The position numbers were made by a program, and so were the translations under genes. A DNA stretch of 32,246 bases from Pseudomonadota bacterium (GTDB taxonomy: Bacteria; Pseudomonadota; Alphaproteobacteria; RF32; CAG-239), in assembly GCA_021617435.1 (NCBI GenBank), contig JAJWCP010000001.1:1388-33633 (forward strand), read 5' to 3'. This document shows positions 4,602 through 32,231 of the stretch, in pieces (the first letter of the stretch is position 1; each line of letters begins with the position of its first letter). The notes beneath the pieces were generated by a model. That model saw only the letters and a list, made by a program, of their open reading frames with translations. It was not told where the DNA came from and ran no database searches.

Positions 4602-5873
4602 TTGGTTGATTATGGCAAGATAGACTCGTTTTTTAACGGGGAGCATCCTTTTGAAGAAAAAAACAGTCGCCGTTTAAGCTTAAAAGCCAAGCTCATACGC
4701 GGGGCAAAGCTTGTTATGCCTTCAACAGCGGCTGTTTTAATCGCTTTACTTATGCTTTATCCGTCATTAAAAAAAGACGAGGCTGTTGCTAATTTAGATG
4801 TTACGTTGCCTAAAAAAGGCGAGCTTGAAAAACTCCATATTGAAAAGACTGAATTTTCGGTTACTGATAAAGATAATTTGGTCAGTTTAATCAAGGCTGA
4901 CCAGGTTGATGAAACCACTGCCGGCTCCAAGGTTATGAAAATTATTAATCCGCAAGGCACAATTCCGGCCGGAAGCAATGACAAACCGGTGGCGGTCAGC
5001 TCCAAAGTCGGCTATTATGACCAAAAAAACAATATCATGAAATTGGAAAAAAATGTTAAGGCCGTGTATGCCGATGGTACCACTGCTGAAACGCAGGAAG
5101 TTAAATATGATTTTAAAAAATCTTTAGGTAACGGCACGCAAAAACTTTATGCTTACGGTGCTTGGGGAAAACTGTGGTCAGAGCAATTTACCTATAATCA
5201 CGCCGCGCAGGTTTTAACCTTAATCGGCAAGTCAAAAGTAACAGATGAAAAAAACACTTTGTTTGCTGACGGACAGGTTCGTTATTATCGTGCTGAAAAC
5301 AAGGCTGAAGCTGATGAAAACGTTAAAATTGAAACGCCGCAAAATGTTATAACTTCCGATAAAATGCGTGCTTTTATCAAGCAAGCCAAAAACTTAGAGT
5401 TTGAAAAAACCGAGGCATGGGGCAATGTTAAATTAACCGCTGAAAAAAACACTATGTATGCCGACAGAGCAGTGGTCTTTTTTCAAAACGGCGCAGTCAG
5501 CAAGGCGGAAGCTTATAATAATGTAAAAGTTATTGAAGGCGATAACACGATGTACGCTGATAAGGTTTTTGTCTTTTTTAAGGACGGCGGCACGCAAGAT
5601 ATTGAAAAAATTGAAGCTTACGATAATGTAAAGGTAGTAACGCCGGACGGAGTTGCCAAAGGCGATTACGGGTTGTATCAACCCCATAAAAATGAAGTTG
5701 AACTAAAGCATAATGTTGCCATAACGCAAAATGGCAGCGTTATTTACGGCGACCGCGCGATTACCGACTTAAAAACTTCCGTCAGCCGCGTGTTGTCTGA
5801 TACGCATAATAAGCGCGTTTCCGGTGTGATTACCGGCGCTGCAATTAAAGGTGAAAAAAATGAAAAAAAATAA
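4602..5873 (+). CDS. Membrane-anchored LptC-like plus LptA/OstA-like fusion protein (LPS transport bridge)
   Basis: The TTG start directly abuts the kdsD stop. There is an N-terminal anchor (RRLSLKAKLIRGAKLVMPSTAAVLIALLMLYPSL). The first half is LptC-like. The second half carries OstA-type repeats (EKNTMYADRAVVFF...AEAYNNVKV; GDNTMYADKVFVFF...IEAYDNVKV; GDYGLYQPHKNEVELKHNV). The position between kdsD and lptB fits. The start codon is uncertain. Confidence 0.7.
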   Translation: MVDYGKIDSFFNGEHPFEEKNSRRLSLKAKLIRGAKLVMPSTAAVLIALLMLYPSLKKDEAVANLDVTLPKKGELEKLHIEKTEFSVTDKDNLVSLIKADQVDETTAGSKVMKIINPQGTIPAGSNDKPVAVSSKVGYYDQKNNIMKLEKNVKAVYADGTTAETQEVKYDFKKSLGNGTQKLYAYGAWGKLWSEQFTYNHAAQVLTLIGKSKVTDEKNTLFADGQVRYYRAENKAEADENVKIETPQNVITSDKMRAFIKQAKNLEFEKTEAWGNVKLTAEKNTMYADRAVVFFQNGAVSKAEAYNNVKVIEGDNTMYADKVFVFFKDGGTQDIEKIEAYDNVKVVTPDGVAKGDYGLYQPHKNEVELKHNVAITQNGSVIYGDRAITDLKTSVSRVLSDTHNKRVSGVITGAAIKGEKNEKK

Positions 5874-6600
5874 TCAGGATTCGGTATTAGAAATTTTTAA
5901 TATCGGCAAAAAATATAAAAATCGCGCCGTTTTGAAGAATGTTTCGCTACATGTTCGCCGCGGTGAGGCAGTCGGTTTGTTAGGACCTAACGGCGCCGGT
6001 AAAACCACATGTTTTTATTGCGTTATCGGCTTAATTACGCCTGATTACGGCGATGTTCATATTAACGGCGAAGATATTACCAATATGCCGATGTACCGTC
6101 GCGCCCGTATGGGCATCGGTTATCTGCCGCAAGAAGCTTCTATTTTCAGAAGTTTAAGCGTGGAAGACAATATTAAAGCTATTTTGGAAATTGTGGAAGA
6201 AGACGAAAGTAAGCGCGAAAATATGTTAGAAGAATTGTTAAATGAGTTTTCAATCGCACACTTGCGCAAATCTCCGGCAATTGCGCTGTCAGGCGGTGAA
6301 CGCCGCCGTTTGGAAATTGCCCGCGCGCTTGCCAGCAATCCTGATTTTATTTTGCTTGATGAACCGCTTGCCGGTATTGACCCGATTGCGGTGGGCGAAA
6401 TCCGTTCACTGGTATCGCAGCTTAAAAACCGCGGCTTGGGTGTGCTGATTACCGACCACAATGTGCGCGAAACCTTAGACATTATTGACCGCGCCTATAT
6501 TTTGCACGGCGGCTCCGTATTAATGGAAGGCACGCCGGAAGAAATTGTTGCCAGTAAAGAAGTTCGCAAAGTTTATTTGGGTGATAATTTTTCTATGTAG
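5860..6600 (+). CDS. lptB: LPS export ABC transporter ATP-binding protein LptB
   Basis: It has Walker A (GPNGAGKTT), the ABC signature (LSGGERRRLEIARAL), Walker B (ILLDEP) and an H-loop (ITDHN). I chose the ATG at 5860 because AAGGTG lies about 6 nt upstream. The ORF track start (GTG at 5851) is the alternative. The gene overlaps the 3' end of the preceding ORF. Confidence 0.93.
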   Translation: MKKNNQDSVLEIFNIGKKYKNRAVLKNVSLHVRRGEAVGLLGPNGAGKTTCFYCVIGLITPDYGDVHINGEDITNMPMYRRARMGIGYLPQEASIFRSLSVEDNIKAILEIVEEDESKRENMLEELLNEFSIAHLRKSPAIALSGGERRRLEIARALASNPDFILLDEPLAGIDPIAVGEIRSLVSQLKNRGLGVLITDHNVRETLDIIDRAYILHGGSVLMEGTPEEIVASKEVRKVYLGDNFSM

Positions 6601-6608
6601 CCTATACC

Positions 6609-6642
6609 CCTCATTGCTTGCAGTGAGGAGAATTTTATTTTT
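6609..6642 (+). terminator. Putative rho-independent terminator of lptB
   Basis: An 8-bp stem (6609-6616 cctcattg pairing with 6621-6628 cagtgagg, one G-U pair) has a cttg loop. It is followed by the T-rich run aattttattttt. Confidence 0.5.
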
Positions 6643-6645
6643 CAG

Positions 6646-6677
6646 ATTTACGAGTCCGGGGTGTGTATAAGTTGTAT
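6646..6677. repeat. Left copy of a 32-bp direct repeat flanking the low-GC cassette
   Basis: The sequence atttacgagtccggggtgtgtataagttgtat matches 8914-8945 at 29 of 32 positions on the same strand. Confidence 0.85.
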
Positions 6678-6746
6678 TTAAATCCGCAATATAAAAAATT
6701 CCCCTCTGATGATATTGTAGCGTTCGCGCGCTCTTTTGCAGGAAAA

Positions 6747-8771
6747 TTATAAATCAAGTTGCTTTTTTACATTGGCAAATACTAAATTTACAGCCGCTTC
6801 AATTTTCCTTTCTTTCTTTTTAACTTCTTTTACATATTGTTGAGCTTTTTCTTTAGTATTAGTCATGTCATGCAACAAGCCACGGTAACAGCTTTGAGGG
6901 TGAGGACCTCCATAATAAATTACTTTATGGTGCGAGTCTTCATTGGTAAATTCATTAATAATCCTGATGCGGCGGGCATTAGGCGTAACCGGTTCTTGCG
7001 TGGCAATTTTATCTTGCGGGGTTTTAGCATTAGGATTTTCATATAATTCAATTAACGGACTGTCTTGTTGGTGTAAAAACTGATGAGACAGCTTGTTAAC
7101 AATTACAAAATTATCCGGTGTGTTTTCACCGCCGTCTTTTAAGGGCTTTTTGTGATGAACCTGGAAATTGGTTGCTCTGTATACATACGGGTCGCCGACA
7201 TTTGCGGCATTTTCCCAAATTTCATCAATGGTTACATTATCATCTGTTAAGTCAGCCGATATGGTTTTAACTAATTTTTTGTTTTTTGCAACCTCTTTCC
7301 AGAAAGCATGGCGAGCATCTTCAATCTTATGTCCTGATTTAAGTTCACTGAGGACAAATCTGTCTTTATGAAAATAACGACCATCCCACTCATCATAAGC
7401 AACATAATATTCATATTCATTATTTTTAGCAACCATTTCGTTAATATCTTTAAGGTTAAATTTAACGGCAATTTTCGGCGGTACATGCATGTTACAAAAC
7501 ATGTCCTTTACTGTTCCGATATATTCATCAAAACCATATTCTTTAAGACTTTTAATAGCAATGCTTTCATCATCTAATCGGTCATAATCATTATATTTAA
7601 ATTTATGATTATTATCAGGTTTAAATTCTAAAAATTCTTTAGTATGTAGCATACTACGGAACCTTTCATCTTCCACTTTACCGACCATTGCGTCAAATTG
7701 CAAACGTTTGACAGAATTGATATTGGTGTCGGATATGTCGCCATAAGTATAAGTAACTTTAAGCCCGTACATGCCACGGAAGTTATTAACTGCGTCTAAA
7801 TTTTCTTGTGTGAAGTTATTAACTAAATACCGCATAATCTCGCTATCCATATCCAGTAATTTTTCGTCATCATAGCCCATAATGCAGTTATAAAAAAATT
7901 CTTTATCTTCCGGATTGTCTGATTTAGTAACTGCAGTTGTTTCACGTAATAACTGCTCTGCAAACGGCATATCGGGGTATTTTTCGTTAAGAGCGCCTTC
8001 TAAATAGTTGTTTTTTGCTAATAGTTCAAAGATTGCTGACTTAAAATTTTTATCTTTGACGTTTGGATTGTTGGCTAAATTAATAAAATAATCAATGTTT
8101 TCAGTTTGGCAATTTCGTAAAAATGACCAGTCATCACAGCCGTTAGTATTTAATGCTGATATACATGGTTGTAAAATTTTGTCGTCATCTGTGTTGATGG
8201 CAATATGCTTGATTAAATCTATTTTGTCCTTTTTGCTTGCTTTGTTCATAGTATTGCACGCCGTTGCAAGTATACATTTTGTGATTTTCGGATTAGACCT
8301 AATTTTTGTGTTGCTACCTAAACACTCTAAAAAATTTTGTATGGTTCTGCCGGTATATAATTTCGGATTTTCCAGTTGTTGGAGTAAAAATTTATCATCA
8401 TTATAAAAATCATTGTAAGCAACAGCTGCGTATAATTTAATTTGATCATTCAATAAACGGTCATTGGTAATTTTAGTAGCTCTGAATAAATCAATAAAAG
8501 CTTGTTGTGTGCCGTAGTTAAATGTTTTTATATTATTGTAGAGATGTTGTGGAGAATTATTATAAATATTGTGCGGGTCATAAAAGTTTGCTTTAAACAA
8601 ATCTTGATAAGTGTTTATAGGTTTATTGTGATCATAAGTCATAGTAGGCTTATTAGACTCATCTGTTACAGAGTTATTGGAATCGTAATCTAATGATGAG
8701 TGACGCTTTCTTAGTTTTTTGGCAGATGGATTGTTAATTGTATCGTACAAATAGTCTGTATCCTGATTCAT
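6747..8771 (-). CDS. Hypothetical 674-aa protein with a C-terminal HNH nuclease motif and an orphan N-terminal region
   Basis: This is a long uninterrupted ORF in AT-rich DNA. GGAG lies about 8 nt upstream of the ATG. The HNH-type motif NFQVHHKKPLKDGGENTPDNFVIVNKLSHQFLH occupies residues 535-569 (DNA 7065-7169). I recognise nothing in the first ~530 aa, which are rich in Asn, Asp, Lys and Tyr. Confidence 0.75.
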   Translation of the reverse strand: MNQDTDYLYDTINNPSAKKLRKRHSSLDYDSNNSVTDESNKPTMTYDHNKPINTYQDLFKANFYDPHNIYNNSPQHLYNNIKTFNYGTQQAFIDLFRATKITNDRLLNDQIKLYAAVAYNDFYNDDKFLLQQLENPKLYTGRTIQNFLECLGSNTKIRSNPKITKCILATACNTMNKASKKDKIDLIKHIAINTDDDKILQPCISALNTNGCDDWSFLRNCQTENIDYFINLANNPNVKDKNFKSAIFELLAKNNYLEGALNEKYPDMPFAEQLLRETTAVTKSDNPEDKEFFYNCIMGYDDEKLLDMDSEIMRYLVNNFTQENLDAVNNFRGMYGLKVTYTYGDISDTNINSVKRLQFDAMVGKVEDERFRSMLHTKEFLEFKPDNNHKFKYNDYDRLDDESIAIKSLKEYGFDEYIGTVKDMFCNMHVPPKIAVKFNLKDINEMVAKNNEYEYYVAYDEWDGRYFHKDRFVLSELKSGHKIEDARHAFWKEVAKNKKLVKTISADLTDDNVTIDEIWENAANVGDPYVYRATNFQVHHKKPLKDGGENTPDNFVIVNKLSHQFLHQQDSPLIELYENPNAKTPQDKIATQEPVTPNARRIRIINEFTNEDSHHKVIYYGGPHPQSCYRGLLHDMTNTKEKAQQYVKEVKKKERKIEAAVNLVFANVKKQLDL

Positions 8772-8913
8772 GGCGTTTACTCCGTATCAAAAACATAGGT
8801 TATATTAACATGCAAAATTAAATAAATCAAGCCAATAGGACTTTTTAGACAAAACAATTCGCATATTATCTTATAATATGAGAAGATTTTAGCTCGCGTT
8901 TTTTTTTTGCAAT

Positions 8914-8945
8914 ATTTACGAGTCCGTGCTGTGCATAAGTTGTAT
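8914..8945. repeat. Right copy of the 32-bp direct repeat flanking the low-GC cassette
   Basis: The sequence atttacgagtccgtgctgtgcataagttgtat matches 6646-6677 at 29 of 32 positions. It lies 2,268 bp downstream of that copy on the same strand. Confidence 0.85.
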
Positions 8946-8955
8946 GTGTATCATT

Positions 8956-8984
8956 AAAAAATCCGGCATTGTTGCCGGATTTTT
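8956..8984 (-). terminator. Rho-independent terminator of the atp operon (after atpC)
   Basis: The perfect hairpin atccggca / ttgt / tgccggat (8961-8980) is flanked by an A-run on the left and a T-run on the right. On the minus strand it reads as a hairpin followed by a T-tract, 7 nt after the atpC stop. Confidence 0.8.
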
Positions 8985-8990
8985 AACTAT

Positions 8991-9337
8991 TTAGCCGAAT
9001 ATTTTTAAGTATTCGTATATTTTTTGGTAAAAAGCGGAGCTTGCCGCCAAAGTTTCGGCTTCCGCCAAGCTGATTTTTTGTAAGTCAACCGCGCGTTCCG
9101 CCGCAACTTTGCATTTGTTTTCGGCAATATCGGCAAATCCGCCGCTGATAAACCAACGTTTCAGCATTTTGTTTTCAGCGTTTAAGGTTGCAATAACTCC
9201 GCCTGAGAGCATCAAAGAACTTGGCGCTCTGCCGTCAATAACGGTCAAGTTGCCGACATCAATCGGCAAAATCACTTTATCTGATTTTTCTTCCGCAATC
9301 AGTTGTTCCGGAGTGCAAATTGCTAAACTTATTGCCA

Positions 9338-9338
<1 letters not shown>
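8991..9338 (-). CDS. atpC: F1 ATP synthase subunit epsilon
   Basis: This 115-aa ORF lies immediately after atpD, with stop and start overlapping at 9338. The position and size fit the short epsilon subunits seen in reduced alphaproteobacterial genomes. Confidence 0.85.
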
Positions 9339-16065: not shown

Positions 16066-16217
16066 TGCGGCTCCTTAAACTTTCCTGATACTAACCGCTT
16101 TGTTCGCAAATATCTATAATTAAGCGCACTTTCCCCACAATAATTTACAACTGGACAAAATTGTGGTTGACAAAATTAGTATCAAGATGTAACATAACAG
16201 CAGTTAAAATACTTATT

Positions 16218-16706
16218 ATGGGAAAATTTTTAAAAGATTGGTCGTTCAGCGCTTTTGTCGGCGTGTTTTTCGGCCTGCTGTTATTTATTCTTTGGCTCTT
16301 TTTAGCAAGAGTTGCACCTTCAGTACTAGTAGTATTTTTCGGAGTGCTGGAGCTATTGGCGCTTGCCGCTATGGTAGTCTATTCAGTTAACCATGTTGAC
16401 GGAGGTATGTGTTTTATGCATGCAGTGTTGATTGCTGCCGTGTTTTACATCTCCGGCGCTGCGTTTAAGCTTGATTGGCTTACCCTTGTCGGCTTGCCGG
16501 CAGGTCTTGAAAGCATCAACAACGTATGGGTGTTACATATGTTTTTCGGTGCATTGTATTGGATAGTCATATCAATGGGAATTATAATCCTCATGATATG
16601 GGTTGATTCCAAACAGCATTTTAAAACGTTGCTGTATGTCTTAACCGCTGGCGCAGCTACTTTTTGTATTTTATATGCAGGCAATATGGTATTTTCAATT
16701 GTCTGA
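16218..16706 (+). CDS. Hypothetical small integral membrane protein (about 5 TM helices)
   Basis: The translation is strongly hydrophobic. I prefer the ATG at 16218 (MGKFLKDW...) over the TTG at 16161 in the ORF track. The gene is followed at once by a terminator hairpin. I recognise no family. Confidence 0.6.
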   Translation: MGKFLKDWSFSAFVGVFFGLLLFILWLFLARVAPSVLVVFFGVLELLALAAMVVYSVNHVDGGMCFMHAVLIAAVFYISGAAFKLDWLTLVGLPAGLESINNVWVLHMFFGALYWIVISMGIIILMIWVDSKQHFKTLLYVLTAGAATFCILYAGNMVFSIV

Positions 16707-18741: not shown

Positions 18742-19218
18742 TTAATTTTCGCCTTGCTTTTTATTACTGCGCTTGGCGGCAAAAAAGGCTTTAAGCATTA
18801 AAGACGATTCTGCGGCCGCAACTCCGGCAGTAATTTTCGGCTTGTGGTGGCAAGTGCTTTGTTCAAAAAATTTAACGCCGTTTATAACCGCTCCGCCTTT
18901 GGCATCGTTGGCGCCGAATATCAGGCGGCGGATTCGGGCAAAAGATATGGCGGCGGCGCACATGGTGCACGGTTCAAGCGTAACATACATATCGCAATTC
19001 CACAGGCGTTTGCTTTTTAAGTTTTTGCATGCTTTTCTGATGGCGACAATTTCGGCGTGGGCAGTGGGGTCGTTACCGTGTTCGCTTTGGTTACGGGCTT
19101 TGGCAACTATTTTACCGGTGGCGGAATCTACAATAACCGCGCCGACCGGAACTTCATCGCGGGCAGAGGCTTTGGCGGCTTCTTTTAAGGCGGCAAGCAT
19201 AAATTTTTCGTCAGACAT
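18742..19218 (-). CDS. tadA: tRNA-specific adenosine deaminase
   Basis: It has the cytidine/deoxycytidylate deaminase zinc motifs HAEIVAIRKA and LEPCTMCAAAI. Its 158-aa length is typical of TadA. Confidence 0.92.
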   Translation of the reverse strand: MSDEKFMLAALKEAAKASARDEVPVGAVIVDSATGKIVAKARNQSEHGNDPTAHAEIVAIRKACKNLKSKRLWNCDMYVTLEPCTMCAAAISFARIRRLIFGANDAKGGAVINGVKFFEQSTCHHKPKITAGVAAAESSLMLKAFFAAKRSNKKQGEN

Positions 19219-19285
19219 AAATATCCTTTGTGTTTTGAAAATTTTAGGTTATATTACAGCAAATATTGCAAAAGGAAAGATAAAA

Positions 19286-20008
19286 ATGGCAGAAAGATTG
19301 GCAAAGTTTATGGCTCGTTCCGGCGTATGTTCGCGCCGGCAGGCTGAAGAGTATATAAAACAAGAGCGGGTAACGGTTGACGGTCATGTTATTTCGTCAC
19401 CGGCGTTTAATGTTGAGGGAACGGAAAAAATTTTGTTTGACGGAGAAAAACTCCCGACTCGCGAGGCAACCCGTTTGTGGCTTTATCATAAGCCGGCGGG
19501 GCTGGTTACCACCCATAAAGACGAGCGCGACCGTCCGACCGTGTTTGATAATTTGCCCGCCGGAATGCCGCGGGTAATCAGCGTAGGACGTCTTGACTTA
19601 AACTCCGAAGGGTTGCTCTTGCTCACTAATAACGGCGAACTTTCGCGCGAGTTGGAACTTCCTAAAAACGCATGGAGCCGCCGCTATCGCGTGCGGGTGC
19701 ACGGTAGAATTGATACCAAGCAACTTGCCGGTTTGCAAAACGGTGTTACGATAGAGGGTGCGGTGTATGGCAACGTCAGCGCGGTTGTTGACAGCCAAAA
19801 CGGCACCAACGCATGGCTTACCGTTACCTTAAATGAGGGTAAAAACCGCGAAATTCGCAAGCTTATGAAGTTTATCGGACTTGAGGTAACGCGTTTAATC
19901 AGAGTGTCGTACGGGCCGTTTCAGCTTGGCAACCTTGCCAAAGGCGAAGTACGTGAAGTTCCTCTTAAAGTGCTGAAAGAACAGCTCGGAAGTCGTATTG
20001 CGTTATGA
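19286..20008 (+). CDS. Pseudouridine synthase, RsuA/RluB/RluE/RluF family
   Basis: It has an S4 RNA-binding N-terminus (RLAKFMARSGVCSRRQAEEYIKQERVTVDG) and the catalytic Asp motif (GRLDLNSEGLLLLTNNG). The ATG at 19286 is preceded by AAAGGAAAG. The longer ORF-track version runs antisense through tadA and is rejected. Confidence 0.9.
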   Translation: MAERLAKFMARSGVCSRRQAEEYIKQERVTVDGHVISSPAFNVEGTEKILFDGEKLPTREATRLWLYHKPAGLVTTHKDERDRPTVFDNLPAGMPRVISVGRLDLNSEGLLLLTNNGELSRELELPKNAWSRRYRVRVHGRIDTKQLAGLQNGVTIEGAVYGNVSAVVDSQNGTNAWLTVTLNEGKNREIRKLMKFIGLEVTRLIRVSYGPFQLGNLAKGEVREVPLKVLKEQLGSRIAL

Positions 20009-20644: not shown

Positions 20645-22720
20645 ATGGCAAGAACATATTTGCAAACCAATACGGTTAATCATAATCACCAAACCGGCAG
20701 CTATGAAAATATTGAACGGGAGCTGATTAAGGAGCAGCAATATCTTAATGCTCAGCTCGCGCGTGTCAGTGCTGATATTTTAAGAGGCGAGGGTGATGAT
20801 GCCGCGCTGAATGCTGAGCGAACATCGTATCGTCAGGCTCTTGACACGGCGGTGCAGGATATGGCATTGCTTAAAAAATATCCCGAATCTTTTCCGTATT
20901 TATATTCAGTGCGCGAACATGCCAAAGCTGATGAAATGCAAGGCACGTTTCGCGAAGTTTTAAGTGATGATGCTGAAATCGTGACTGAAGCCGGTGACGT
21001 TATGCCGCGTGATGAAGCGCTTGAGCTTAACTATGAAATTGACGGCGTTCCGTTTGCCGTATCCGCCGAGCCTTATGATAAACCCGGTGAAGATGAGGCT
21101 CAGCTTAGAGGGCGTATTAATTTCAGTGTCAAAGCCATAGAAAATTTAAATGAAGAACGCTTAAAACAGATTTTGGCCTTTTGCGAGCAACATGGCATGT
21201 CGGTTTATGATATTGATATTCCGATGAAAGAGGGTAAGGTTGATTTAGATGAAAAACTTGCCTCGTTAATGCAAAAAGTTATGGATGCTCGTCGTGCGCA
21301 GGATGCTGCTAATCCAGGTGCCGGTGCTGATGATGAAAATCTTAATCATTATCAGGAAATTACGCCTGAAACTAAAGATTTAGACGTGGCTTTTGTCAAA
21401 GGGACGAAGGTGAAACCTAAAGCCAAAGCGCCCAAAACTTTAAACAACGTTAAAAATGACCTGTTGGAATTGATTGAAAAAGATATGAAGAAAACCCGCG
21501 GTTTAACCTTTTTTGAACGCACTCGTAATGTCGGCGGGTTGTCAACAACTGTCTTCAGTATTTATGATAAACCGGATAAGGATAATGAGAAAAAAGACGG
21601 TCTTAAAGATAAAAACGGCGTTTATGTGCCTACTTATACTTATCGCCTTTATGTTTCGCAGAACTCTAAAACCGGACGCTTTGTGTTCGGCTATTCCACC
21701 CCTAATGGCAAAAAATTAGATGATGCCATGGCGGGCGATTTTATCGGTGTTATTAAAAAGAGTGGTGCAACCCATGTAAACTTTTCAAACCTCAGCAATG
21801 CAGATAAGGGTGTTTGGATGATGGCCTGCGCTGAAAAAGGCTTGGTGCCGATTGGTATCAGTATCAATATGGCTAAAGCCAAAGCGATGGTTGAAGCGGC
21901 GCGCAAAAAACTCAATCATGAAGAATTTGTTTTGTTCAAAAAACGCCTTGCCGACCAAATGATTGAAAACTCTGAAAAGAAGAACCCGGGTAAAGCTCGT
22001 TTCGGCATGGAAAAATCAGAGTATGATTTTGTTCAGACTATGCGATCAGGTTATGACTTTGAAAACTTCCGCTCTGCTTATGACGCGGAGGGAGGCTTGT
22101 ATACCACGGTGCTCTCGCGTATTGAAGAGGGTGGCGCTAACGCGGAAAAAGGCGCGGCTATTACCTTCGGCGCTATGCGCGCGTTGCGTTCGGTATTTGA
22201 CTTGTACGTTAAAAATCAGAATGAAACCTTTGGCGAGGCTTTGGCAAAATCAACCGGTGCCAATAACAAATATGCTTTAACCAAAGAAGAAGTTTTAGCA
22301 CTCTCGCAAATTCCGGCCGGTAAGCCGATGATGGACTTAAATACTGATGACTTTATGGCTATTTACCGCGTTTTGGAACCGCGTCAGATACGGCAAGCGG
22401 AAGAAGATATTTTAGCCGCTTATCGCCGTGAGCTTAAACGCAAACCGCAGCGTGCCGATACTATTGTTTTAGCCAGCGATTTGTTCCCGAAAGTTAAATC
22501 GGAAGTTAACGGTATTAATATTTACTTAGGTCGTGAAGGTATTGACACCTTAACGTTGCCTAATGAACACAGCGGTTTGAGCTATGCTCGTCCTGAAGAA
22601 CTTAATCCTCAGCCGACCGCGCAAAATACGCAGGTTCTGCAAAATACTCAGACTAACCAACCGCAAGCTACTAATAAAGTGGTTAACGCTCAAGTGCAAA
22701 ATTCCGGTAATACCCGCTAA
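20645..22720 (+). CDS. Hypothetical 691-aa protein with no recognisable domain and a Gln/Asn/Thr-rich C-terminal tail
   Basis: This is a long ORF with host-like composition. TAAGGAG lies 8 nt before the ATG. A strong terminator follows at 22766-22796. No TM segment, signal peptide or catalytic motif was recognised. Confidence 0.8.
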   Translation: MARTYLQTNTVNHNHQTGSYENIERELIKEQQYLNAQLARVSADILRGEGDDAALNAERTSYRQALDTAVQDMALLKKYPESFPYLYSVREHAKADEMQGTFREVLSDDAEIVTEAGDVMPRDEALELNYEIDGVPFAVSAEPYDKPGEDEAQLRGRINFSVKAIENLNEERLKQILAFCEQHGMSVYDIDIPMKEGKVDLDEKLASLMQKVMDARRAQDAANPGAGADDENLNHYQEITPETKDLDVAFVKGTKVKPKAKAPKTLNNVKNDLLELIEKDMKKTRGLTFFERTRNVGGLSTTVFSIYDKPDKDNEKKDGLKDKNGVYVPTYTYRLYVSQNSKTGRFVFGYSTPNGKKLDDAMAGDFIGVIKKSGATHVNFSNLSNADKGVWMMACAEKGLVPIGISINMAKAKAMVEAARKKLNHEEFVLFKKRLADQMIENSEKKNPGKARFGMEKSEYDFVQTMRSGYDFENFRSAYDAEGGLYTTVLSRIEEGGANAEKGAAITFGAMRALRSVFDLYVKNQNETFGEALAKSTGANNKYALTKEEVLALSQIPAGKPMMDLNTDDFMAIYRVLEPRQIRQAEEDILAAYRRELKRKPQRADTIVLASDLFPKVKSEVNGINIYLGREGIDTLTLPNEHSGLSYARPEELNPQPTAQNTQVLQNTQTNQPQATNKVVNAQVQNSGNTR

Positions 22721-31502: not shown

Positions 31503-32231
31503 TTAGAAAGTCATCTGATAATAAAAAGCGCAACTGTCTTTGTCTTCGCAAACGTTACAAAAGTCTTCCATTTCAGCAATGGTTAAATCTTTCAGGCATT
31601 TTGTGTCAGATGTGCAATAACTATCGCCATTAACTATGTTGGCCGAGGAATTTTCTTCACCTTTGGTTGTTTTAAACTTGGTACGCCAAAGTTGCTCTCT
31701 TTTGGCTTTAGCGATTGTAAATAAATTCATGCACGATTCTTTTTGCCCCTTGTTTAAGTATAACAAAAACTCAAAGGTATAACCGCTATCGAAATAGTTT
31801 GCGAGAACAATCGTAGTCCCAAAGACGTCAAATATAGCGTCATTTCTGTTTTCGCGTATCATTTCTTGCGGGATAACGTTTAATTTTTTAAGTAAAGGTA
31901 TCATATTGGCGGAAATAGTTGTTTTTGAGCGTTTAAAATCATCTAAATGAATATTGACATAGTCTAAAATTGAGCCGATTTGCTCCGTTTGTTTGTTAAG
32001 TTTGTATTTCATCATTGCTTTGCTGTAACCGGCGATAGCGCCGACTGACAGAACGCCGATAATCGCCAAAACGCCGAGCATTTCTACCATAGACCGACCG
32101 GCATTCACAATCTTGTCATTATCGGGCTTGAGCGATACGTCCTTCCCCTTTCTGTCATTATCGGGCTTGAGCGATGCGCCCGCCCCCTCTCTGTCATTAT
32201 CGGGCTTGACCCGATAATCCAGGTGGGACAA
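31503..32231 (-). CDS. Type IV pilin / pseudopilin-like protein (prepilin-type N-terminal cleavage/methylation signal); 5' end uncertain
   Basis: It has a class III signal: G|RSMVEMLGVLAIIGVLSVGAIAGYS, with Glu at +5 after the predicted cleavage Gly. The C-terminus is Cys-rich. The frame stays open to the window edge at 32246. A GTG at 32108 would give a normal short leader (M-N-A-G) and a CDS of 31503-32108. The TTG at 32231 would place the repeats KPDNDREGAGASL/KPDNDRKGKDVSL in front of the signal. Confidence 0.6.
   Translation of the reverse strand: MSHLDYRVKPDNDREGAGASLKPDNDRKGKDVSLKPDNDKIVNAGRSMVEMLGVLAIIGVLSVGAIAGYSKAMMKYKLNKQTEQIGSILDYVNIHLDDFKRSKTTISANMIPLLKKLNVIPQEMIRENRNDAIFDVFGTTIVLANYFDSGYTFEFLLYLNKGQKESCMNLFTIAKAKREQLWRTKFKTTKGEENSSANIVNGDSYCTSDTKCLKDLTIAEMEDFCNVCEDKDSCAFYYQMTF
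32114..32218. repeat. 39-bp tandem repeat (2 full units plus a partial third) ending in a 9-bp-arm palindrome
   Basis: Unit 1 (32114-32152) and unit 2 (32153-32191) match at 34 of 39 positions. Unit 3 shares its first 18 nt (32192-32209). It then completes the palindrome attatcggg (32196-32204) / cttga / cccgataat (32210-32218). The array may continue beyond the window. Confidence 0.85.

Follow-up and report, generated by a model that had tools for sequence, protein, structure and literature searches.

Why should a bacterial chromosome carry, on its own, a gene for an enzyme of the colicin DNase type? Colicin-type DNases are textbook toxins that depend on a tightly bound immunity protein. The question is raised by a gene on the minus strand (6747..8771, stop codon included) of a 32,246-nucleotide (nt) stretch from an uncultured gut alphaproteobacterium (GCA_021617435.1, contig JAJWCP010000001.1, positions 1,388-33,633 of the forward strand), here called the window, whose positions are used throughout. 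From an ATG start, an intact open reading frame (ORF) encodes a protein of 674 amino acids (aa) and a predicted ~78 kDa. An earlier note, made by a model from the letters alone, described it as an orphan with a lone HNH nuclease motif and no partner gene, and proposed profile searches, structure prediction with a fold search, and a survey of homologues and their neighbourhoods. We find that the protein has a conserved catalytic centre resembling that of colicin and pyocin DNases, is maintained by purifying selection, has a coupled SUKH-like partner in one sister clade and none in its own, and sits in a pilin hotspot behind a module shared with pilin-like genes. With about even confidence, we take the protein for a conflict nuclease; its likeliest role is that of a bacteriocin-like toxin acting between bacteria and leaving the cell without a Sec signal.

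The peptide NFQVHHKKPLKDGGENTPDNFVIVNKLSHQFLH, residues 535-567, holds the HNH catalytic motif HH-X13-N-X8-H-X3-H (H539, H540, N554, H563 and H567; residues 539-567, 7071..7157, minus strand), seen in the sequence, in a regular-expression search over the family, in conservation and in structure models. The DNA range that the earlier note gave for the segment (7065-7169, residues 535-569) checks out. Residues 482-568 (7068..7328, minus strand) match positions 41-124 of the 124-position Pfam model PF21431 (Col-Pyo_DNase), scoring 29.2 bits (E 1.1e-6) where the gathering cut-off is 27; the generic Pfam HNH model scores just under its own cut-off. In Pfam, phmmer and family-profile searches, this is also the segment matched by the DNases of colicins E7, E2 and E9 and pyocins S2, AP41 and S8. 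Matches by phmmer in the PDB are mainly the DNase domains of colicins E7 and E9, pyocin AP41 and klebicins (best colicin E7, E 5e-5), the lone unrelated match being McrA (E 0.05). The alignment takes in the catalytic hairpin-helix plus the preceding helix (ED-AR-HAFWKEVAKNKKL versus DDFRKKFWEEVSKDPEL), which is typical of the colicin/pyocin subfamily. When the family-core profile was the query, all PDB matches below E 0.1 were colicin/pyocin DNases (E7, E2, S2, AP41 and S8; best E 7e-4). PF21431 reached E <1e-3 in only 3/37 family members, and judged by these scores membership of the nuclease appears distant and marginal (~29 bits) but real.

The consensus of nuclease bacteriocins is HH-X14-N-X8-H-X3-H (PMC5536347); the motif of the window clade is one residue shorter in the first loop, a spacing that we counted as belonging to that class, and the N-to-H loop spans 9-32 residues in other clades of the family (regular-expression search). 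Across 37 family members, some with as little as 16-20% identity, H539, H540, H563 and H567 vary hardly or not at all, and N554 is invariant in the 8 closest sequences and nearly invariant in a 21-sequence core alignment. Two AlphaFold models (full-length; residues 300-674) show a beta-beta-alpha unit, with H539 and H540 on strand E537-540, N554 before strand E555-558, and H563 and H567 on and just after helix H560-566. These sequence comparisons indicate an HNH (beta-beta-alpha-Me) enzyme of the colicin/pyocin DNase subtype. The HNH reading of the earlier note is thus borne out by a PF21431 score above cut-off, colicin and pyocin relatives in the PDB, conserved histidines and the modelled fold, and the proposed profile searches lift it above chance. 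Its remark that Cys zinc ligands are missing was also correct, and is normal for the colicin/pyocin DNase subtype, which never has them.

The protein is not the orphan it was first taken for. A word-indexed search returned seven clusters only (83-97% identity for five of them, 42% and 33% for the other two), and a 37-sequence profile returned the same seven proteins when used as query. An exhaustive profile search of 1.84 billion representatives gave 44 proteins at E <=1e-3, 34 of them at E <=1e-30. The family amounts to ~44 clusters at 50% identity, with total lengths up to 1185 aa and a common ~440-aa core behind variable helical N-termini; the C-terminal, putatively toxic module is conserved while the N-termini vary. 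Labelled genome matches are two metagenome-assembled genomes (MAGs) named 'uncultured Alphaproteobacteria' and one bin labelled Lachnospiraceae. The contig in that bin (CAVBCV010000031.1, here L005) encodes a nuclease 89% identical to ours. It also shares a 97%-identical pilin module with the window, which encodes lipopolysaccharide-export genes, so a Firmicutes MAG was probably the wrong bin for this contig. Judged by its labels, the family appears confined to uncultured Alphaproteobacteria; homologues also occur in a bioreactor metagenome.

The ratio of non-synonymous to synonymous substitution rates (dN/dS) is 0.26-0.34 for the window gene against its homologues in L005 (89% aa identity) and contig L016 (95%), and is lowest over the mid-region, DNase and C-terminal extension. 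Intact copies occur in at least five clusters, and all nuclease copies compared were intact. The gene is functional and under purifying selection. Its guanine-plus-cytosine (GC) content is 33.2% against 43-45% in the flanks, making it a compositional island, and in most of 12 loci examined the gene lies 5-10 points under its flanks. Contexts elsewhere differ: one homologue lies between motA and unrelated genes (L002), and others follow genes for an H+-PPase (L006) or dnaJ (L023), or stand beside a type I restriction-modification (R-M) system (L025). The proposed survey thus did uncover a family, with contexts that vary between clades.

In the window, lptB converges on the nuclease gene, its stop at 6600 being 146 bp away, and atpC (8991-9338) lies 219 bp upstream on the same strand as the nuclease gene. 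Neither gap holds a neighbour-independent ORF of >=40 aa in the ORF list, in agreement with the gap sizes and the lack of room for a partner gene reported by the earlier note. Rfam and tRNA scans of the window were both empty. A hydropathy scan of the nuclease found no signal peptide or transmembrane segment, as had been noted, with a peak 19-residue hydropathy of 0.54.

A partner does exist elsewhere in the family. In the most distant clade (P0007/L007), the nuclease stop codon overlaps, or closely precedes, the start of a 133-135-aa ORF. The first two examples of this partner are 53% identical to each other, and it has ten homologue clusters. In 3/3 long-contig members it lies directly after a 561-573-aa gene, with 6001/6001-type overlaps and different surrounding genes; these upstream genes are nuclease family members with intact catalytic residues, and the overlap with the nuclease stop recurs in at least five different genomic contexts. 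Among ten partner homologues, seven match SUKH_6 (best E 0.0033), four SUKH_5 (best E 5.4e-4) and two SMI1_KNR4; the partner had no match among PDB sequences. SUKH proteins are described immunity proteins of nuclease toxins (PMC3113570, PMC3482391). The 135-aa partner is probably a SUKH-fold immunity protein, and by its sequence and coupling the P0007/L007 clade looks like a toxin/immunity-type pair. The conserved, translationally coupled SUKH-like partner in this clade argues for toxin and immunity rather than homing.

No relative of the partner was found in the window, L005, L016, L002 or L006 by tblastn or by a partner hidden Markov model (HMM) run on six-frame translations; the HMM found no partner fused to nuclease proteins, and the Colicin_Pyocin immunity family was absent from the scanned window ORFs. 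In L006 and L023 convergent genes lie downstream of the nuclease; those of one locus are unrelated to those of the other, and Pfam gave nothing informative for them. The statement that there is no partner gene therefore stands for the window and most sampled clades, and fails for the P0007/L007 clade with its coupled 135-aa ORF. Elsewhere in the window, a 181-aa polytopic membrane ORF (16161-16706, plus strand) has a sub-threshold match to Pfam Colicin_im (E 4e-4), probably a composition effect, and L016 has a gene of similar size at the matching position. We rejected it as the missing immunity gene: Colicin_im is the immunity of pore-forming colicins, not of the DNase type, and this membrane ORF is 7 kb away.

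The architecture around the DNase is new. Residues 1-56 (8604..8771, minus strand) are rich in N, D, Y and K, hold no hydrophobic signal-like segment, and are predicted to be disordered, as judged by the proxy of low-complexity composition and a low predicted local distance difference test (pLDDT) score (<50 at 1-46 and 48-56). Residues 57-335 (7767..8603, minus strand) form an all-helical, repeat-like (solenoid) region in the AlphaFold model (helices H55-H333). Its first ~170 residues are clade-specific, with family-wide conservation from about residue 230 (distant profile matches start at ~200-250). Foldseek with the full-length model gave only weak ARM/HEAT/TPR-type alpha-solenoid matches (E >=0.02), which is what came of the proposed fold search. 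Profile searches and alignments define the family-conserved core as residues ~230-674 (6750..8084, minus strand), comprising an acidic helical/beta mid-region, the DNase and a C-terminal extension. Residues 230-430 carry a net charge of -12, and conserved in the mid-region are N329, G336, R356, F359, Y396 and D442, with the motifs VNNFTQENLxxVNxLRxxYGLK and HVPPE. The extension (residues 571-674, 6750..7061, minus strand; DSPLIxLY...YYGGP..S.Y.G) is modelled as four beta strands (E576-631) and a 35-residue terminal helix (H639-673), with conserved columns at D570, P572, G621 and G622.

The full-length model (pLDDT 82.5) runs from the disordered residues 1-56 through helices to ~335 and then into a confident mixed alpha/beta core. 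Modelled separately, residues 300-674 reach a pLDDT of 89.6 and a predicted template modelling score of 0.87, and are predicted to form one compact unit. Foldseek searches of PDB and BFVD with the core model returned no significant neighbour, only short local beta-beta-alpha matches to HNH proteins, and the non-DNase parts have no match in Pfam, NCBIfam, PADLOC or PHROGs. The earlier note had likewise recognised nothing in the rest of the protein. Since the core fold searches yield nothing significant, structure does not give the function of the mid-domain or the extension.

How did such a gene come to lie between atpC and lptB? It is bracketed by a 52-nt direct repeat (79% identity; 6633-6684 and 8901-8952) whose core, CGGACTCGTAAAT, occurs twice in the window against 0.03 times expected by chance. 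The upstream copy belongs to a 65-nt putative promoter/leader module (8879..8943, minus strand; core GACTCGTAAAT at 8914-8924) of the form ACAACTTATGCACAGCxCGGACTCGTAAATATTGC-A9-12-CGCGAGCTAAAATCTTCTCA. Across copies, an A-tract of 9-12 nt (8901-8910 in the window) is followed by CGCGAGC, and TTGCAA and TAAAAT are separated by 14-17 nt, mostly 15. In the upstream module the candidate promoter elements, read from sequence on the minus strand, are TTGCAA (8907-8912), a 15-nt spacer with an A10 tract, and TAAAAT (8886-8891). We infer that the module acts as a sigma-70-like promoter; a sigma-70 scan found nothing in it, the spacer being 15 nt. A sigma-54 reading was rejected by eye (GG-to-GC spacing of 15, not 12), and an extracytoplasmic-function-type reading, AAC-N18-CGT, may apply. 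It is conceivable that A-tract lengths of 9-12, which shift the spacer over 14-17 nt, permit slipped-strand phase variation of pilin and nuclease expression.

Between module and ATG lies a nuclease-specific 5' leader (8772..8878, minus strand), conserved with L005 and L016 and unlike pilin leaders; the module core stands 153 nt before the nuclease ATG and ~75 nt before pilin-like ATGs. Homology between the window and L005 (90.8%) extends from the upstream module exactly to the stop codon. In L005 the gene follows clpB, not atpC; another repeat copy sits downstream of it, where the contig ends, and a third is found at a distance of 7 kb. L016 has the same locus as the window plus a 266-aa pilin-like gene after the nuclease. 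Aligned with it, the window shows a gap of ~860 bp that opens immediately behind the module core and closes at the lptB terminator, so that the rest of the module and the pilin-like gene are missing. The alignment indicates that a pilin-like gene was deleted from the window and that the downstream repeat is an orphaned module (6646..6708, minus strand; core 6646-6656 plus an extended 5' part from AGAGGGGAATTTT) abutting the lptB terminator. The atpC intrinsic terminator (CCGGCA-ACAA-TGCCGG plus a T-run; 8955..8978, minus strand) is read from sequence as the hotspot's fixed left border in all strains, and the terminator-module junction is identical in L008-L016. The lptB intrinsic terminator (6609..6628, plus strand; terminator scan and L016 alignment) forms the right border of the insertion in the window strain.

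Among 23 contigs with identical AtpC that were read, 8 loci were displayed, from gut metagenome assemblies of which two are named Hadza; all 8 have 207-298-aa genes directly after atpC, with or without a Fic gene, and none has the nuclease. The post-atpC site (window ~6600-8990; L008-L016) holds one or two pilin-like cassettes, sometimes with a DUF4172-Fic gene on the opposite strand, and its right-hand neighbour varies by strain (lptB, peptidase M3 or HAD hydrolase). The post-atpC genes are type-IV-pilin-like, with a common N-terminus, G/RSMVEMLGVLAIIGVLSVGAIAGY, and variable Cys-rich C-terminal parts; Pfam N_methyl and PilS match below threshold only. The module precedes every pilin-like ATG in L005 and L008-L016. 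A scan of metagenome contigs found 84 stretches with the module, ~55 from one sample and many at contig ends. Where downstream sequence could be read (59 copies), it held 55 pilin-like genes, 2 broken pilin-like genes and 2 Cys-rich signal-peptide proteins, and the nuclease in 0/59. With ~55 module contigs in one sample, many breaking at the module, the data suggest that one gut population of alphaproteobacteria holds a very large family of pilin-like paralogues. The closest nuclease homologues lie on 2.2-kb contigs and the module-to-module distance is 2268 bp, as expected if assembly breaks at a multi-copy repeat.

Several further features of these cassettes were observed. The two signal-peptide proteins (L069 and L094, minus-strand ORFs after the module; ...CETLGYY...CGHYIYCPFDTNYKRC...) are non-pilin and represent a second cargo type. 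At the window's end, a pilin-like member (31503-32231, minus strand; ...GRSMVEMLGVLAIIGVLSVGAIAGY...) has a weak PilS_N match and a long N-terminal leader with LKPDND repeats; it runs off the edge, so its module would fall outside the window. Four pilin-like genes (L008 6490-7314, L011 6490-7368, L012 7407-8303 and L016 12173-12973) have in-frame leaders of 60-90 aa (MKSYISRFLHHTLSHS...) before a G/RSMVEML cleavage-type motif; leaders of type IV prepilins are usually far shorter. The DNA of these long leaders contains palindromes such as ATTATCGGGTCAAGCCCGATAAT.

We favour a toxin because the nuclease belongs to a DNase family, a sister clade has a SUKH-like partner, the protein has colicin-like features (no signal peptide, a disordered N-terminus, variable N-termini) and its distribution is accessory. 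That the gene is accessory and mobile is indicated by its low GC, its absence at the displayed atpC loci, the 89%-identical copy beside clpB, its other contexts and the Fic gene in the hotspot. On this account the nuclease would be a soluble protein made in the cytoplasm, with residues ~430-570 forming a distant colicin/pyocin HNH DNase. By analogy with colicins E7 and E9, from which the catalytic roles are taken, H540 would be the general base, the divalent metal would be bound by H563 and H567 (with H539), and N554 would brace the loop; DNA cleavage would be metal-dependent and probably not sequence-specific. In one clade the toxin would be neutralised by the co-translated SUKH-type immunity protein. 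The window clade would instead be a solo, horizontally moving, strain-variable single-gene cassette that landed in the pilin hotspot downstream of atpC and captured a copy of the promoter/leader module of the pilin family, from which it would be expressed. Its producer would be protected by an unlinked immunity gene or by latency imposed by the extra domains.

A number of observations weigh against this account. A cytoplasmic, non-specific DNase without an inhibitor should kill its producer, yet neither the window clade nor the clades of L002, L006, L023 and L025 have an immunity or inhibitor gene next to the nuclease, and no lysis gene is present. The DPY translocation motif is absent, as a strict pattern, from all 50 family sequences; Pfam found the DNase alone and no secretion or trafficking domain in 37 members; and 49 representatives have no signal-peptide-like or transmembrane-like segment. 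Nor does the DNase end the protein: the last catalytic His has 107 residues after it here, and 57-152 in every member with a locatable motif (32/50). The DNase segment is mildly acidic (pI 6.2), and colicin DNase domains are basic. Foldseek retrieved no colicin DNase with either model, the best HNH-type match being the Gme HNH nicking enzyme at E 3.7, and may miss a small embedded domain. Every SUKH match of the partner lies under the Pfam gathering score, though all come from one clan.

A stand-alone intracellular abortive-infection nuclease is a reading that we consider possible yet unlikely. In it, the helical repeats would sense a phage or plasmid cue and free a latent DNase that destroys invader and host DNA alike, and the SUKH-like partner would be an antitoxin-type brake in one clade. 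Solo single-gene insertions in variable accessory contexts, one of them directly beside a type I R-M system, are what such a gene might show, as are the Fic gene in the same hotspot, low GC, strain variability and the lack of an export signal in every family member examined. A large helical domain and a compact core predicted to pack the DNase against extra domains would also fit a latent enzyme. However, PADLOC-DB v2 has no meaningful match (a lone partial one, E 0.031, to a CARF-Lon model) and PHROGs none, Pfam finds no NTPase or other known sensor module, and a recognisable defence island occurs in only 1 of ~10 contexts. Colicin-type DNase domains and SUKH partners are, moreover, known mainly from secreted toxin systems.

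The shared module invites two further readings. Because the nuclease shares it with more than 50 pilin-like and secreted-protein genes, the enzyme may be co-regulated with, and possibly released by or delivered through, a type IV pilus/type II secretion system-like apparatus, in a latent form whose active site is masked by the acidic mid-domain or the C-terminal extension; we regard this as improbable. Were it true, the nuclease would be an immunity-independent, self-inhibited DNase toxin. There is similarly a small chance that it is not toxic at all and is a pilus-linked DNA-processing nuclease, co-expressed with pilin-like genes and handling, for example, extracellular or incoming DNA. The 65-nt module common to the nuclease and more than 50 pilin-like genes in the same hotspot is consistent with such a role, and absent self-toxicity would account for the missing immunity gene. 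Yet relatives in other genomes are unlinked to pilin genes or the module, the sister clade needs a dedicated partner and the nuclease has no export signal. Its absence from most strains of the species (8 displayed atpC loci) means that it cannot be a core pilus function.

The missing immunity gene also prompts comparison with effectors aimed at a eukaryotic (host or protist) genome, for which self-immunity would be dispensable. A colicin-type DNase on a non-bacteriocin N-terminus without an adjacent immunity gene, in carriers that are gut-associated uncultured bacteria, resembles Usp, with which uropathogenic E. coli acts on mammalian cells and which is itself a colicin-like HNH DNase (PMC5536347). 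Nevertheless, no secretion-system genes or effector signals were seen in any locus, homologues occur in a bioreactor metagenome, the sister clade's SUKH partner speaks for an enzyme able to harm bacteria, and a cytoplasmic enzyme would still meet its producer's own DNA. We therefore think an effector of this kind quite improbable.

The repeats themselves could suggest a free-standing homing or recombination-initiating endonuclease, one of the readings in the earlier note, that cuts at or near the pilin module and is copied into other module sites or stimulates pilin cassette exchange. Two module copies bracket the gene in the window and in L005, two different module-bearing sites (after atpC and after clpB) are occupied in related strains, and short-read assemblies break at both modules to give the 2.2-kb contigs. 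The repeats are explained otherwise, however: they are copies of the module that precedes more than 50 pilin-like genes, each copy being the putative promoter of a gene, and the downstream one was left by the deletion of its pilin gene. None of the 59 surveyed copies carries the nuclease, relatives elsewhere lack repeats of this kind, Pfam finds no homing-endonuclease DNA-binding modules, and ordinary homologous recombination would by itself lead to movement between modules. Colicin-type DNases are also non-specific. We consider homing very improbable. Finally, a decaying remnant, a case that the earlier note had raised, or an annotation artefact, to which low GC and the lack of a partner gene might point, is effectively refuted by the intact 674-codon frame, a dN/dS of ~0.3, intact 83-97% orthologues in many samples and conserved catalytic residues.

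Three other places in the window drew attention. A 691-aa ORF (20645-22720, plus strand), flanked by rpoB and a gene for an RsmD-like methyltransferase, has no Pfam match at E <=0.001, and its GC is not anomalous. A 423-aa ORF overlapping the lptB start (4602-5873, plus strand) combines an LptC N-terminal half with an LptA C-terminal part and looks like an LptC-LptA fusion. An RluD-like pseudouridine synthase ORF (18773-20008, plus strand) has a long 5' extension, and a TadA-like deaminase ORF (18742-19218, minus strand) overlaps this extension. The S4 domain of the synthase begins only at residue 174, so its true start is probably much further downstream.

Returning to the favoured toxin reading, its interest lies in a catalytic machinery kept under purifying selection even though at least five clades have no adjacent inhibitor and one clade does. 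If the solo forms are active, the ~440-aa core must hold a new latency mechanism for a non-specific DNase, or else the immunity gene is unlinked. Either outcome would add to the understanding and recognition of toxin/immunity systems. Additionally, an uncultured gut alphaproteobacterium with dozens of pilin-like genes on one module and a post-atpC hotspot offers a tractable case of promoter capture by accessory genes.

Of known systems, the nuclease bacteriocins (colicins E2, E7, E8 and E9; pyocins S1, S2 and AP41; klebicins) come closest. They share with the nuclease the PF21431 family, near-identical catalytic spacing and an FxxxRxxFWxxV helix before the motif, and they likewise lack a signal peptide, start with a disordered region and join a conserved killing domain to N-terminal parts that vary; an N-terminal intrinsically disordered region occurs in 5/8 of their groups (PMC5536347). 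In bacteriocins, by contrast, the cytotoxic domain is at the extreme C-terminus, with nothing equivalent to the extension that places 107 residues after the last His here, and an acidic mid-domain of ~200 aa is fused upstream of the DNase in our protein. Their immunity gene lies <=60 bp downstream and has conserved immunity motifs (PMC5536347), whereas the 146-bp gap here consists of the orphaned module and the lptB terminator, with no lysis gene. A DPY motif (D-X4-FP-X8-Y) in the pyocin_S/T-domain is found there (PMC5536347) and is lacking here, where PF06958 and PF03515 have no match at E <=10. The window gene also differs in its setting, lying in a pilin hotspot on the chromosome of an uncultured alphaproteobacterium. 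Of five defining bacteriocin features tested, three are lacking (C-terminal position, adjacent immunity gene and DPY motif), and the nuclease should not be filed as a nuclease bacteriocin.

Polymorphic toxins with HNH/colicin-DNase domains and SUKH immunity (Zhang, Iyer and Aravind 2011, PMC3113570; Zhang et al. 2012, PMC3482391) have a similar nuclease toxin domain. The sister clade is like them in its small, coupled, downstream SUKH-like gene, and the family resembles them in being low-GC, strain-variable accessory genes. Unlike them, 37 members have no PAAR, Rhs, LXG, TPS or MafB-N trafficking domain, and polarity is reversed, with a conserved C-terminal module and variable N-terminus in place of classical tip polymorphism. 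Additionally, the window clade and four others have no immunity gene, and arrays of spare toxin/immunity cassettes are absent. Usp, the colicin-like HNH DNase genotoxin of E. coli, starts with an Hcp-like domain, and small immunity-like ORFs, Imu, lie behind its gene; the nuclease has neither feature. The two are alike in carrying a colicin-type DNase on a non-bacteriocin N-terminus, and Usp is not classed as a bacteriocin (PMC5536347).

Free-standing phage HNH homing endonucleases are alike in being single HNH genes with repeat flanks and alternative sites in related genomes. They are of a different HNH subtype, the nuclease is two to four times larger and has no site-specific DNA-binding modules, its repeats are the putative promoter modules of neighbouring genes, and most module sites are unoccupied. 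We also set aside the divergent-HNH toxin family Rehh (bioRxiv 10.64898/2026.09.22.753552), which is described as lacking detectable similarity to known nucleases, whereas ours is recognised by the colicin DNase profile. Known toxin domains often turn up in new architectures, and this one opens no new category. Judged by its sequence relationships, the nuclease is best described as a new family, and a new architecture, built around a known toxin domain rather than as a new kind of system.

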